Below are positions 11,709 through 59,951 of a stretch of 64,000 nucleotides of DNA, piece by piece. Within the stretch, counting starts at the first letter, position 1. Each line of letters opens with the position of its first letter. Below the pieces are notes generated by a model that worked only from the letters and a program-made list of their open reading frames with translations, did not search any database and had not been told where the DNA came from. Source of the stretch: Escherichia coli. GTDB taxonomy: Bacteria; Pseudomonadota; Gammaproteobacteria; Enterobacterales; Enterobacteriaceae. The stretch is taken from NCBI RefSeq assembly GCF_017348835.2, contig NZ_CP071375.1; one strand, 5' to 3'. The translations under genes were made by a program, and so were the position numbers.

Positions 11709-11720
11709 CACGCTACCGCC
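11709..11720 (-). promoter_or_regulatory. ops element (RfaH recruitment site) within the JUMPstart sequence of the wza leader
   Basis: Plus strand reads cacgctaccgcc, whose reverse complement is GGCGGTAGCGTG, the ops consensus; lies in the long untranslated leader upstream of wza. Confidence 0.7.
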
Positions 11721-11933
11721 CCTGGCTTTTTAGCTACCAATACACTGATTTAGCTTAATTTTTCAAACCCTCTCAACATACAGTCGTTGATGAGAAAGGG
11801 TTATTGTGGAAATTAACTTCCGAATATAAGGTGACATTATGGTAATTGAATATTGGCTCTCCAATAATGCAGGAGGAAGTGTTACAGCTAACGGAATAGC
11901 AGGCAAGGTAACAATTCGGCAATTGGCTATTTT

Positions 11934-27152: not shown

Positions 27153-27333
27153 AAGAAATCCTTTCTTAGAGAATTATTGAGGTCCGGTATCATACCGACT
27201 GCAATAATGAAATAAGAGCAGGCAAAGCAACTTTCAGAATTCGGCCCGGCGGCGCAGAAAATTTTGCTATTCGCCTCGCAAGAACGGAGAGCCGTCGATT
27301 GACACTAAGGGCGGAGTGACATAATTTCAGGAG

Positions 27334-27482
27334 TGAGGGTTAGGGAGAGGTTTCCCCCTCCCCCTGGTGTTCTTAGTAAGCCTGGAAGCTAATCACTAAG
27401 AGTATCAGCAGTATGATGACGTGCTTCATCATAACCCTTTCCTTATTAAAAGCCCTCTTCTCCGGGAGAGGGTTTCCCGTTT
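27334..27482 (+). ncRNA. sibA: Sib antisense sRNA, copy 1 (approximate ends)
   Basis: Plus-strand transcript fully overlapping the ibs ORF; candidate -35 ttgaca at 27299-27304 and terminator hairpin gccctcttctccgggagaggg + T-tract near 27450-27482. Ends inferred, not mapped. Confidence 0.6.
27373..27432 (-). CDS. ibsA: Ibs type I toxin, copy 1 (19 aa, MMKHVIILLILLVISFQAY)
   Basis: Hand translation of the reverse complement of 27373-27432; hydrophobic membrane peptide typical of Ibs toxins. Confidence 0.7.
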   Translation of the reverse strand: MMKHVIILLILLVISFQAY

Positions 27483-27667
27483 CAGCGTCCCGCTGAAATC
27501 GTCGGCTTACCTCCTTTCGCCCTGAATGCAGTCTATCGCTAACGCGTGAACAAAATAGTTCCCTCTGTGATTATTGCGTAACGACTCGCAAAGAATATTT
27601 GCTGGCAGGATCGCAGACTGCAAAGCCTGCAGATTGACAATCTTATCGTGAAGGCATACTTTCAGGA

Positions 27668-27811
27668 GTGAGGGTAGAGTGGGGTTTCCCCCGCCCTGGT
27701 AGTCTTAGTAAGCCGGGAAGCTTATGACTAAGAGCACCACGATGATGATCCACTTCATCATGACCCTTTCCTTATTTAAGGCCCCTTCCTCGGGAGGGGC
27801 TTTCCCGTTTC
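27668..27811 (+). ncRNA. sibB: Sib antisense sRNA, copy 2 (approximate ends)
   Basis: Candidate -35 ttgaca at 27634-27639, -10-like tacttt; terminator ggccccttcctcgggaggggc + T-tract ending about 27811. Confidence 0.6.
27705..27761 (-). CDS. ibsB: Ibs type I toxin, copy 2 (18 aa, MMKWIIIVVLLVISFPAY)
   Basis: Hand translation of the reverse complement of 27705-27761. Confidence 0.65.
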   Translation of the reverse strand: MMKWIIIVVLLVISFPAY

Positions 27812-27994
27812 AGCGTCCCGCTGAAATCGTCGGCTTACCTCCTTTCGCCCTGAATTCAGTCTATCGCTAACGCGTGAACAAAATAGTTTCCTCTGTGATT
27901 ATTGCGTAACGTCTCGCAAAGAATATTTGCTGGCAGGATCGCAGACTGCAAAGCCTGCGGATTGACATTCTGAACGTGAAGGCATACTTTCAGG

Positions 27995-28138
27995 AGTGAG
28001 GGTAGAGCGGGGTTTCCCCCGCCCTGGTAGTCTTAGTATGCTGGGTAGCTAATCACTAAGAGCACCACGATGATGAGTATCTTCATCATGACCCTTTCCT
28101 TATTTATGGCCCCTTCCTCGGGAGGGGCTTTCCCGTTT
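27995..28138 (+). ncRNA. Sib antisense sRNA, copy 3 (extra copy relative to the two I remember at this K-12 locus; approximate ends)
   Basis: Third repeat unit with the same promoter-like ttgaca…tacttt and terminator hairpin ggccccttcctcgggaggggc + T-tract. Confidence 0.55.
28033..28089 (-). CDS. Ibs type I toxin, copy 3 (18 aa, MMKILIIVVLLVISYPAY)
   Basis: Hand translation of the reverse complement of 28033-28089. Confidence 0.6.
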   Translation of the reverse strand: MMKILIIVVLLVISYPAY

Positions 28139-42130: not shown

Positions 42131-42214
42131 TTAATTTCGATTATTTTTCCCGGATGGAAAATTCTTAGAAACCGATCACATACAGCTGCATTTATTAAGG
42201 TTATCATCCGTTTC

Positions 42215-42301
42215 GCTGAAAAACATAACCCATAAAATGCTAGCTGTACCAGGAACCACCTCCTTAGCCTGTGTAATCTCCCTTACACGGGCTTATTTTT
42301 T
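42215..42301 (+). ncRNA. cyaR: CyaR (RyeE) Hfq-dependent sRNA
   Basis: gctgaaaaacataacccataaaatgctagctgtaccaggaaccacctccttagcctgtgtaatctcccttacacgggcttatttttt matches my memory of CyaR, including the terminal hairpin and U-tract. Confidence 0.85.
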
Positions 42302-50572: not shown

Positions 50573-50712
50573 CGTTATTTTATGCCGGATGCAGTGTAAA
50601 CATACGTGGCAGCGCTGTGTAGGCATGATAAGACGCTTCAGCGTCGCATCAGGCATAGGTTGCCGGATGCAGCGTAAACGCCTTATCCGTCCTACGGGGT
50701 GGTGTTGTTCGT
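50573..50712. repeat. REP/BIME cluster between gatY and fbaB
   Basis: gccggatgcagtgtaaacatacg…gataagacgcttcagcgtcgcatcaggc…gccggatgcagcgtaaacgccttatccgtcctacg, multiple inverted REP units. Confidence 0.7.
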
Positions 50713-56925: not shown

Positions 56926-57726
56926 TCACCACCAGGCGTGGAAGTGGTGAACCGGACCAATACCGTGACCAACTTCCAGCGTGTCGGCCTGTGCTAACGC
57001 CGATGAAAGCCAGCTTTTTGCCTCCTGTACGGTGTCAGCCCAGTTTGTATGGCGCGGGCGTAGTGCAGCCAACGCCGCAGAGAGCGTACAACCAGTGCCG
57101 TGGGTGTTTTTGGTCATAATGCGCGGTGCAGTAAATCGTTGTTCTCCCTCACGAGTAAACAGCCAGTCCGGGCTTTGTTCAGCATCCAGATGACCACCTT
57201 TCATTAGCACTGCGCCACAGCCCATCGCCAACAGCGATCGCCCTTGTTCCAGCATTTCCTGTTCGGTGCGCGCGTGTGGCGCGTCGAGCAAGGCGGCTGC
57301 TTCGGGCAAGTTTGGCGTTATTAATGAAACCTGTGGCAATAATCGACTGCGTAGCGTGGCAACTGCCGAGGGTGAAAGCAGTGGGTCGCCGCTTTTTGCC
57401 AGCATAACGGTGTCGAGTACCACGTTTTGGATCTGATAACGTTGCAACCGTTCTGCCACCGCTTCAACAATATCGGTTTCCGCCAACATACCGATTTTAG
57501 TGGTGTCGATTCGCACATCGCTGAACACCGAATCGAGCTGGGCAGCGACAAAATCAGGCTCAATGCGATACACCGACTGTACGCCACGGGTGTTTTGCGC
57601 CACCAGAGCAGTAATAACTGAGCAACCATAAGCGCCAAGTGCCGAGAAGGTTTTAAGATCGGCCTGAATCCCCGCACCACCACTCGGATCAGTACCGGCA
57701 ATCGTCAGAGCGTTAATTCGTTTCAT
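56926..57726 (-). CDS. thiD: Hydroxymethylpyrimidine / phosphomethylpyrimidine kinase
   Basis: 266-aa [37 protein letters not shown]…. Confidence 0.95.
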
Positions 57727-58511
57727 GCCTGCACCTCCTGCGTCAATTGCCAGAGCGCATCAAGGAAATGTGGAACAAAACTGCCTGGCCCCTCGCTTCT
57801 GGCGACTGCGCGTTCTCCGGCTTGTTTCATCCAGTGACAGGCAGATGCGACATTTTCCAGCGTATCGCCTGGTAACGCACAGCAGGCAGCGACAACCGCC
57901 GATAATGCACAGCCAGTTCCTACCACTTTGGTCATTAACGGATCGCCACCGTGAATACCAATGATACGATGTCCATCGGTAACATAATCCATCTCTCCAG
58001 TGACCACGACGATTGCGCCGGTTTCCCGTGCCAGTGTTTGTGCAGCGGGTATCGCGTTAGCTGCGGCGTCAGTGGTATCCACTCCCCGTCCGCCATTAGC
58101 AATGCCAGCTAATGCCATGATTTCCGAAGCATTACCACGTATCGCTGCCGGTTTAAAAGATAAAAGTTCATGACAAAAATGGCGGCGATAATCGAGCGCA
58201 CCAACCGCTACTGGATCAAGCGTCCAGGGTGTTTGAGAGCTTTTTGCTTGCTCAACGGCAGCACGCATCGCCTGTGCGCGTGGCTGCGTCAGTGTGCCAA
58301 CGTTAATCAACAAGGCACTGGCGATAGCCGCAAACTGACTGGCCTCTTCGGTTTCGATAACCATCGCTGGCGATGCACCGAGCGCCAGCAAGGTATTGGC
58401 AGTAAAGGTTTGCACCACATCGTTGGTCATGCAGTGCACAAGAGGGGAATGTTGGTGAAAAAGGTGTAACGTGTGCGCAGATTGCGCGGAACTCAGCAGG
58501 TCGACTTGCAT
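57723..58511 (-). CDS. thiM: Hydroxyethylthiazole kinase
   Basis: 262-aa [37 protein letters not shown]…; 4-nt overlap with thiD. Confidence 0.95.
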
Positions 58512-58644
58512 AGTTTGCTCCTGCCATAACGTGAAGAAGCAATGACCTGGTGGTCCGTGACTTCCCTACGCTGGCATTATCCAGATCAGGTGATACGGGT
58601 ATTTCTCAGCCTTCACGCAGAAGGGCACCCCGAGTCGTTTGGTT
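58512..58644 (-). promoter_or_regulatory. TPP (THI-box) riboswitch in the thiM leader
   Basis: Minus strand reads aaccaaacgactcggggtgcccttctgcgtgaaggctgagaaatacccgtatcacctgatctggataatgccagcgtagggaag…ggcaggagcaaactATG, which matches the well-studied E. coli thiM aptamer and expression platform as I remember it. Confidence 0.9.
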
Positions 58645-58733
58645 GCGATGATAAATCGCAGAGGAGGATGGTAATGTCCAGCGCACCCGTTGTAAACGAG
58701 GAAAAACGGCAGTTTTACAATCGCGTTAATAAA

Positions 58734-59006
58734 TTATTTGATATATGAATCCAGCACCTTCAGAACGACATCCAGATCTTCTTCACGTTTTAGCTCATCC
58801 CCCTGGTGAACGATGTGTTCAGTTAGATGACCTTTAATCACTTCCCGCATCAGACCGTTTACCGCGCCACGGATAGCAGCAATCTGTTGTAAAACTGCAG
58901 CGCATTCGTGCGGCTCGTCGAGCATTTTCTTGAGCGCCACGACCTGGCCCTGAATCTTACTGGCACGTGCTTTCAGTTTCTGTTTATCACGGATTGTATG
59001 AGACAT
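58734..59006 (-). CDS. rcnR: Ni(II)/Co(II)-responsive repressor RcnR (CsoR/RcnR family)
   Basis: 90-aa [51 protein letters not shown]…. Confidence 0.93.
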
Positions 59007-59054
59007 GGCAACACCTGGTTAACAAGAACATGAAAAATCATAGCACTATTAATC

Positions 59055-59089
59055 TACTGGGGGGTAGTATCAGGTACTGGGGGGGAGTA
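59055..59089. promoter_or_regulatory. Two RcnR operator sites (TACT-G6/7-AGTA) in the rcnR-rcnA divergent promoter region
   Basis: tactggggggtagta (59055-59069) and tactgggggggagta (59075-59089), inverted TACT/AGTA half-sites around G-tracts. Confidence 0.8.
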
Positions 59090-59126
59090 GAATCAGATTG
59101 CCGAATTAATACTAAGAATTATTATC

Positions 59127-59951
59127 ATGACCGAATTTACAACTCTTCTTCAGCAAGGAAACGCCTGGTTCTTCATCCCCAGCGCCATCTTACTTGGTGC
59201 GCTTCATGGCCTGGAACCAGGGCACTCAAAAACGATGATGGCGGCGTTTATCATCGCCATCAAAGGCACCATTAAACAGGCGGTGATGCTCGGACTGGCA
59301 GCAACCATTTCGCATACCGCAGTGGTCTGGTTGATTGCCTTTGGCGGGATGGTGATCAGCAAGCGCTTTACTGCTCAATCAGCAGAACCGTGGCTCCAGT
59401 TGATTTCCGCAGTGATCATTATTGGCACCGCGTTCTGGATGTTCTGGCGTACCTGGCGCGGCGAACGCAACTGGCTGGAGAATATGCACGAGCATGATCA
59501 TGAGCATCATCACCACGATCACGAAGATCACCACGACCAAGGACATCATCACCATCACGAACATGGCGAGTATCAGGATGCCCATGCACGAGCCCATGCC
59601 AATGACATTAAACGACGCTTTGATGGTAGAGAGGTCACCAACTGGCAAATTTTGCTATTTGGCTTAACCGGTGGCCTTATCCCCTGCCCGGCAGCAATTA
59701 CCGTGCTGTTGATTTGCATTCAGTTGAAAGCCCTGACACTGGGCGCAACACTGGTCGTCAGTTTCAGCATTGGCCTGGCGTTAACGCTTGTCACCGTAGG
59801 CGTTGGCGCAGCAATCAGCGTTCAGCAGGTCGCAAAACGCTGGAGCGGATTTAACACTCTCGCTAAACGCGCCCCCTATTTTTCCAGTCTGTTGATTGGC
59901 TTAGTTGGTGTGTATATGGGCGTACATGGCTTCATGGGCATAATGCGATAA
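59127..59951 (+). CDS. rcnA: Nickel/cobalt efflux permease RcnA
   Basis: 274-aa ORF with His-rich cytoplasmic loop (HEHDHEHHHHDHEDHHDQGHHHHHEHGEYQDAHARAH) between transmembrane blocks. Confidence 0.93.
   Translation: MTEFTTLLQQGNAWFFIPSAILLGALHGLEPGHSKTMMAAFIIAIKGTIKQAVMLGLAATISHTAVVWLIAFGGMVISKRFTAQSAEPWLQLISAVIIIGTAFWMFWRTWRGERNWLENMHEHDHEHHHHDHEDHHDQGHHHHHEHGEYQDAHARAHANDIKRRFDGREVTNWQILLFGLTGGLIPCPAAITVLLICIQLKALTLGATLVVSFSIGLALTLVTVGVGAAISVQQVAKRWSGFNTLAKRAPYFSSLLIGLVGVYMGVHGFMGIMR

Follow-up and report, generated by a model that had tools for sequence, protein, structure and literature searches.

The TPP riboswitch of the thiM leader in an Escherichia coli genome and integrations into its aptamer in other strains

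Background

The closest described system is the TPP riboswitch in the thiM leader of E. coli K-12. The literature on it includes Winkler 2002 and the crystal structure of Serganov 2006, both as cited in PMC2018614, as well as Bastet 2017 (PMC5499598). Its RNA has been the subject of published structural, kinetic, probing and reporter work, and its binding of TPP has been measured (PMC2018614; PMC4841613). A TPP-free fold with an extended 3' helix was described by Rentmeister et al., as summarised in PMC2018614. TPP-induced repression of translation also triggers Rho-dependent termination inside thiM codons 20-34 (PMC5499598).

The thiC and tbpA/thiB riboswitches of E. coli belong to the same Rfam family as thiM and respond to the same ligand. 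According to PMC5234074 and PMC11487190, they are translational OFF switches with extra Rho and pausing layers, and they differ from thiM in that they occupy other loci and have different expression platforms and pause checkpoints.

Comparison with the K-12 thiM leader

The window (the whole stretch of DNA that was analysed, 64,000 nucleotides) was compared with E. coli K-12 MG1655. The region 58512..58644 is 100% identical to K-12, and over 58735..58480 there are three differences, at 58687, 58493 and 58488. The substitution at 58687 lies in the promoter spacer. The other two lie in thiM codons 7 and 8, and the first of them changes Gly7 to Ser in our own translation. These codons fall in nt 151-172, which Bastet et al. 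count as expression-platform structure. The comparison reached 58480, and 58487..58480 is again identical to K-12; 58493 and 58488 are located upstream of the Rho region. The helices, the triad of anti-anti-SD, anti-SD and SD, the ACCA loop, the downstream genes thiM and thiD and the upstream gene rcnR are all the same as in K-12 thiM.

Judged by its sequence, the element is the known thiM TPP riboswitch of E. coli, already described and ordinary, and we infer that the window RNA binds TPP from its 100% identity to the K-12 RNA on which binding was measured. The sequence-only reading had described a well-studied thiM THI-box and known biology, which the identity to the K-12 RNA bears out. It had also put the element forward as a positive control for the reading of non-coding elements. 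This control succeeded, since riboswitch, platform and start codon had been placed within a few bases.

Locus and leader

The genes controlled by the leader are the following.

57723..58511, minus strand: thiM, hydroxyethylthiazole kinase, the regulated gene (TIGR00694, 341 bits, cutoff 256.4; ORF list)
58511..58509, minus strand: ATG start codon of thiM (from the sequence)
56926..57726, minus strand: thiD, HMP/HMP-P kinase, second gene of the operon (TIGR00097, 361.6 bits)

The two genes overlap by 4 nt (57723..57726). Upstream of the thiM leader lies rcnR (58734..59006), rcnA is a further neighbour, and the THI-box is found on the minus strand between rcnR and thiM. With thiM and thiD directly downstream, it occupies the same-strand 5' leader of a thiamine biosynthesis or transport gene, the location that is characteristic of RF00059 members. 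The claim that the leader directly precedes a thiM ATG at 58511 was thus correct, as the open reading frame 57723..58511 and its 341 bits to TIGR00694 confirm. At the homologous locus in E. coli genomes the RefSeq label is "riboswitch", "thiM", and the 256-nt stretch 58735..58480 was matched in 5424 of the 5426 complete E. coli genomes.

Upstream of the aptamer, a promoter, the transcription start and a terminal hairpin could be placed.

58668..58696, minus strand: predicted sigma70-like thiMD promoter (consensus scan, 9/12 matches)
58696..58691 and 58673..58668, minus strand: its -35 hexamer TTTACA and -10 hexamer TACCAT, separated by a spacer of 17 nt (consensus scan)
58661, minus strand: transcription start, nt 1 of the 150-nt leader, which begins with CUGC (mapped from the numbering in PMC5499598)
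58660..58655 with 58649..58644, minus strand: 5'-terminal hairpin UGCGAU-UUAUC-AUCGCA (present in every predicted fold)

In the thiM numbering of Bastet et al. 2017, the AUG is nt 151-153, the RBS contains G142 and transcription is primed with CUGC (PMC5499598). The AUG position and the CUGC start together put nt 1 at 58661 (CTGC = 58661..58658) and give a leader of 150 nt. The position of the predicted promoter agrees with this published start, which falls 7 nt after the -10 hexamer. The range 58512..58644 that had been given for the riboswitch spans both aptamer and expression platform, but the 17 nt at the start of the transcript (start at 58661, hairpin 58660..58644) are not part of it. 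The 6-bp hairpin at 58644..58660 immediately precedes the aptamer and falls narrowly outside the type B repeat described below. No role for it was found in the thiM riboswitch literature that we examined.

The TPP aptamer

A covariance-model scan with RF00059, which had been proposed as the check, yielded a significant match that, at 71.2 bits, exceeds the gathering score of 54.3. Over both strands of the 64-kb window (128 kb searched) its E-value is 5.1e-12, and in a local scan 4.8e-14. This is the only TPP match in the whole 64-kb window, and no other Rfam family was matched within 58300..58900 at E<=1. The canonical TPP aptamer that had been read in the minus-strand thiM leader is thereby substantiated by a match over the full length of the model.

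58642..58546, minus strand: TPP aptamer (THI-box; full RF00059 model, positions 1-105, not truncated)
58636..58633 / 58562..58559, minus strand: helix P1
58632..58629 / 58599..58596, minus strand: helix P2
58626..58620 / 58614..58609, minus strand: helix P3
58590..58587 / 58568..58565, minus strand: helix P4
58584..58581 / 58574..58571, minus strand: helix P5

All 22 pairs of this assignment are canonical (22/22), and the helices P1-P5 are arranged around a three-way junction, as is typical of the family. Two non-canonical pairs are flagged by Infernal, one at the outermost position of P1 and one in P3. The latter is a register artefact: GCC-C-UUC and GAA-GGC pair at six positions, all of them canonical, and leave one C bulged out. 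The thiM aptamer has no P3a stem, which is optional in the Rfam consensus. Both sensor segments, CUGAGA and ACCUGAUCUGGAUAAUGCCAGCG, occur verbatim in the leader and are invariant in 47 homologous leaders, parts of both having been demanded by the homologue search pattern itself.

Expression platform and two-state folding

The published nucleotide numbers of Lang et al. (PMC2018614) were converted to window positions as nt n = 58647 - n. Together with folding, this places the platform as follows.

58561..58564, minus strand: anti-anti-SD GAAG, published nt 83-86, overlapping the 3' strand of P1 (mapped from PMC2018614)
58544..58555, minus strand: GACC-ACCA-GGUC hairpin of the TPP-free extended 3' helix (predicted free fold)
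58533..58542, minus strand: anti-SD strand UUGCUUCUUC, core CUUC at 58539..58536 = published nt 108-111 (PMC2018614 mapping and folding)
58515..58525, minus strand: SD strand GGCAGGAGCAA, SD GGAG at 58521..58518 = published nt 126-129 (PMC2018614 mapping and folding)
58410..58454, minus strand: thiM codons 20-34, needed for TPP-dependent Rho termination in K-12 (coordinates mapped from PMC5499598)

The ACCA loop at 58551..58548 corresponds to the published ACCA tetraloop, nt 96-99 (PMC2018614), and the Shine-Dalgarno sequence AGGAG (58522..58518) ends 6 nt before the ATG.

Nucleotides 1-165 were folded under three regimes: without constraints, with P1-P5 imposed to imitate the TPP-bound state, and with the 5' strands of P1 and P2 blocked. 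Without constraints, the partner of the anti-SD is the anti-anti-SD (P=0.89), and the extended helix to which they belong is closed off by the GACC-ACCA-GGUC hairpin, as in the TPP-free fold of Rentmeister et al.; of the SD, the first three bases (GGA) stay unpaired in the minimum free energy (MFE) structure. Enforcing the aptamer shifts the anti-SD to the SD (P=0.99), and its pairing with the anti-anti-SD drops to P=0; the probability that the SD is unpaired is then 0.002, as against 0.34 in the free RNA. Blocking the 5' strands of P1 and P2 raises anti-SD:anti-anti-SD pairing to P=0.99. The two pairings of the anti-SD are mutually exclusive, which is the hallmark of a translational OFF riboswitch, and their positions equal the published ones. 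The SD-sequestering expression platform of the sequence-only reading was therefore supported both by constrained folding and by the match to the positions in PMC2018614. The MFE of the whole leader is no more stable than that of shuffled sequences (z = -1.27), a value that is uninformative because a bistable RNA is expected to show it.

These folds reproduce the two-state model of the literature. With the Rho step taken from PMC5499598, the most probable mechanism is the following. When TPP is scarce, GGGAAG in the 3' part of the aptamer pairs with CUUCUU of the anti-SD to form the extended helix with its ACCA cap, leaving the SD GGAG free so that thiM can be translated. When TPP is bound, the aptamer closes P1-P5, and P1 absorbs part of the anti-anti-SD; the anti-SD set free in this way then pairs with the SD, and the resulting helix prevents ribosome binding. 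The untranslated thiM mRNA is open to Rho, leading to termination within codons 20-34, and the level of thiM mRNA falls as well.

Conservation in homologous leaders of other genera

With the aptamer core as anchor, a single DNA-pattern scan gave 120 loci, 53 of which (53/120) have a thiM homologue directly downstream, with protein identities of 40-91%. Alignment A1 combines 46 of these leaders with that of the window (47 in total); the 46 ThiM proteins are 57-87% identical to that of the window. The aptamer is almost invariant across A1, including GACTCGGGGTGCCC, which was not among the pattern requirements. Due to this near-invariance, P1, P2, P4 and P5 are uninformative on covariation. P3 shows three compensatory pairs across genera.

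Turning to the platform, the CTTCTT motif of the anti-SD is kept across the 47 thiM leaders. The whole OFF structure is 92% paired, compared with 37-57% in slid controls. Its anti-SD:SD helix is 75% paired, with core pairs that hold in 33-47 of 47 leaders, and one outer pair is compensatory, being CG in 14 sequences and UA in 5. For the ON helix, pairing reaches 69% (39-57% when slid), and its GGGAAG/CUUCUU core is likewise found in 33-47 of 47; it cannot covary, because one of its sides is the aptamer. More generally, the platform shows modest covariation, since each of its helices has one partner under constraint, either the invariant aptamer or the SD. As read from these alignments, the cross-species support for the platform appears real but modest.

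Each leader was also folded with and without aptamer constraints. A clean switch of the E. coli type (SD occlusion below 0.1) was obtained in about 17 of the 47 leaders and many other registers occurred, in what is a weak test that we do not count against the two-state model. Indels make A1 unreliable in the platform region, and the platforms of several genera hold an additional GC-rich hairpin, which the energy model does not resolve. This extra hairpin (e.g. UGUCCGG...CCGGACA) is seen in many leaders from outside Escherichia, in A1 columns ~95-135 (e.g. L074, L087 and L060), where it encloses the anti-SD and abuts the SD. It suggests a platform architecture unlike the two-helix model of E. 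coli.

Assessment of the regulatory mode

Taken together, we consider the leader to be a TPP-sensing OFF switch of thiM that combines SD sequestration with Rho termination, with a probability of about 0.97. Of this reading, the aptamer match, the identity to the RNA of K-12 and the two alternative pairings as computed are results of the present analysis; TPP binding, translational repression and the Rho step come from the literature (PMC2018614; PMC4841613; PMC5499598). No evidence contradicting it was encountered.

The alternative that survives best, and that we regard as unlikely, is a switch that controls translation initiation only and leaves transcription and the amount of mRNA untouched. 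It is the original model of Winkler, as summarised in PMC2018614, and it would suit a platform that holds SD-sequestering pairings alone and has no intrinsic terminator. However, transcriptional fusions containing at least 34 thiM codons show a TPP-dependent, bicyclomycin-sensitive loss (Bastet et al. 2017, PMC5499598), and Rho termination sites have been mapped to nt 231-262 (PMC5499598). It is also unlikely that the substitutions at 58493 and 58488 abolish Rho loading in the window, because they are positioned upstream of the mapped rut region. The purely translational control that was implicit in the sequence-only reading thus holds for the sequestration of the SD but lacks the Rho layer in codons 20-34 (PMC5499598).

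Premature intrinsic (Rho-independent) termination, as in many Gram-positive THI-box elements, is highly improbable: a scan of 58300..59200 found no terminator-like hairpin with a T-run on either strand, and the platform ends in the SD and AUG, not in a U-tract. The lack of an intrinsic terminator is consistent with control at the ribosome-binding site and by Rho (PMC5499598). That the covariance-model match is a chance resemblance with no regulatory role can be dismissed, given its E-value of 5e-12 over 128 kb, the right gene context and strand, the identity to an experimentally characterised RNA, and an aptamer that stays nearly invariant in 47 leaders whose ThiM proteins are only 57-87% identical.

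Integrations at the thiM riboswitch in other E. coli strains

The site discussed in this section is empty in the window, but the thiM riboswitch is an occupied integration site in about one tenth of the complete E. coli genomes. The 256-nt query is unbroken in 4727 of the 5426 genomes and a 161-nt query in 4952 genomes, the latter with 5732 places in 5424 genomes. The figure of about 700 split genomes was rejected as a prophage count, since it takes in the promoter replacement of the O157 type. Retrieval of both element ends revealed two different elements, with repeats of 14 bp and 82 bp, here called type A and type B; a single prophage with a 43-nt core was rejected on these grounds.

Type A was found in strain A41 (L004/L005) as an island of 14.7 kb (RefSeq annotation). 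It encodes an integrase of 406 aa with the domains Arm-DNA-bind_3 and Phage_integrase, DUF6387, HTH and Icd-like proteins, a primase and an SSB, and a head module consisting of HK97-type capsid, protease, portal, connector, HNH, TerS and TerL. The RefSeq annotation of the A41 island shows neither tail nor lysis genes. Elements termed cf-PICI are defined by a size of 10-18 kb, an integrase, replication and regulation modules, their own capsid, protease, portal, connector, HNH, TerS and TerL genes, and the absence of tail and lysis genes (bioRxiv 10.1101/2025.02.11.637232). Judged by the gene annotation of A41, the type A island agrees with this definition.

58593..58606, minus strand: 14-bp core AGAAATACCCGTAT, type A attachment site, empty in the window (junction sequences)
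L004 3593-3608; L005 20909-20922; L001 4001-4014: the 14-bp core in occupied sites

The 14-bp direct repeat AGAAATACCCGTAT spans J3/2 and the 3' strand of P2, and the junctions read ...GAGAAATACCCGTAT/TTTCTCATT and ...AAATTAGTA/AGAAATACCCGTATCACC (slash = point of junction). Integration of type A splits the aptamer. The half on the thiM side scores 33 bits to RF00059 and has lost the promoter; our folding predicts that it stays trapped in the anti-SD:anti-anti-SD pairing (P=0.99), which would leave the SD roughly half open and make the RNA blind to TPP. The left junction was detected in 76 of 5426 complete E. coli genomes and the right-end flank in 134, 76 of which cover at least 80% of the query. 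An ST131 strain carries the same right end beside different cargo. Among phages, the best relative found for the type A integrase shares 50.7% identity with it. Near each end of type A, direct repeats of TGTGTGGTCA(G) occur twice (L001 3909-3932; L004 3734-3758) and may be candidate arm-type binding sites of the integrase.

Type B, from strain CE0007a (L002/L006), is an island of 7.9 kb that lies between two annotated TPP riboswitches. It codes for an integrase of 435 aa, an HNH endonuclease, an HTH protein, a recombinase-family protein, several hypothetical proteins and an HTH_73 protein.

58564..58645, minus strand: 82-bp block that is duplicated at both ends of type B, empty in the window (junction sequences)
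L006 129-224 and 8019-8115; L003 3501-3606: riboswitch copies at type B

On the rcnR side, the native promoter is followed by the aptamer up to ...CGTAGGG and then by island DNA, with the integrase ATG 67 nt past this junction. Despite its replaced P1 3' strand, this copy scores 61.9 bits to RF00059. The copy next to thiM is a complete riboswitch, but upstream of 58645 there is island DNA throughout, in place of the native promoter. Counted over genomes, 126 contain the integrase junction and 468 the right-end junction; for the latter, 313 match at >=99% identity, and O157:H7 and O55:H7 are included. In these two serotypes the order is rcnR, unrelated genes, an HTH-like gene and then the riboswitch.

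No close relatives of either element were found among deposited phages, the integrase region of type B had no near DNA match there, and the exact attP patterns of both elements had no match in viral contigs. A consensus scan for sigma70 promoters on the thiM strand found none at the right ends of the two elements.

The integrations in the thiM aptamer are directly seen in the sequences. At slightly less than even odds, we propose that tyrosine-integrase elements of at least two unrelated kinds recurrently use the aptamer as their chromosomal attachment site. Of these, the cf-PICI-like island splits the aptamer and would leave thiMD TPP-blind, and the 7.9-kb island swaps the upstream region, with a remnant fixed in O157:H7/O55:H7. 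A search of a limited literature, main texts only, found neither thiM nor a riboswitch named as an att site. It is uncertain that the integration site is undescribed and that it alters thiamine regulation. If mobile elements routinely target a riboswitch, the regulation of thiamine salvage would vary among E. coli lineages, including O157:H7, and would be masked by annotation labels, and riboswitch aptamers would count, alongside tRNA-like genes, among the conserved sites at which islands and phage satellites land.

Other RNA elements in the window

The Rfam scan of the 64-kb window gave further matches above threshold.

27299..28104, plus strand: three tandem SIB RNA copies, about 330 nt apart (RF00113; 143, 138 and 140 bits)
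42213..42298, plus strand: CyaR/RyeE sRNA (100.7 bits)
50622..50692, minus strand: naRNA4 (64.5 bits)
11709..11747, minus strand: JUMPstart element (57.3 bits)

SIB RNAs are the antitoxin RNAs of the Ibs/Sib type I toxin-antitoxin modules. At the equivalent locus K-12 presumably has two copies.

Comparison with known attachment sites

Until now it is stable RNA genes, those for tRNA and tmRNA among them, that have been linked to the role of attachment site. Like the att sites in tRNA and tmRNA genes and in the ffs gene for 4.5S RNA (PMC12540744), the thiM site undergoes tyrosine-integrase recombination inside a conserved structured RNA, with a direct repeat at both ends. Riboswitches are not among the classes of att sites given in PMC12540744. 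The thiM site differs from the tRNA, tmRNA and ffs sites in two respects: the target is a cis-regulatory mRNA leader and not a stable RNA gene, and one of the two elements fails to restore its target, leaving the aptamer split.
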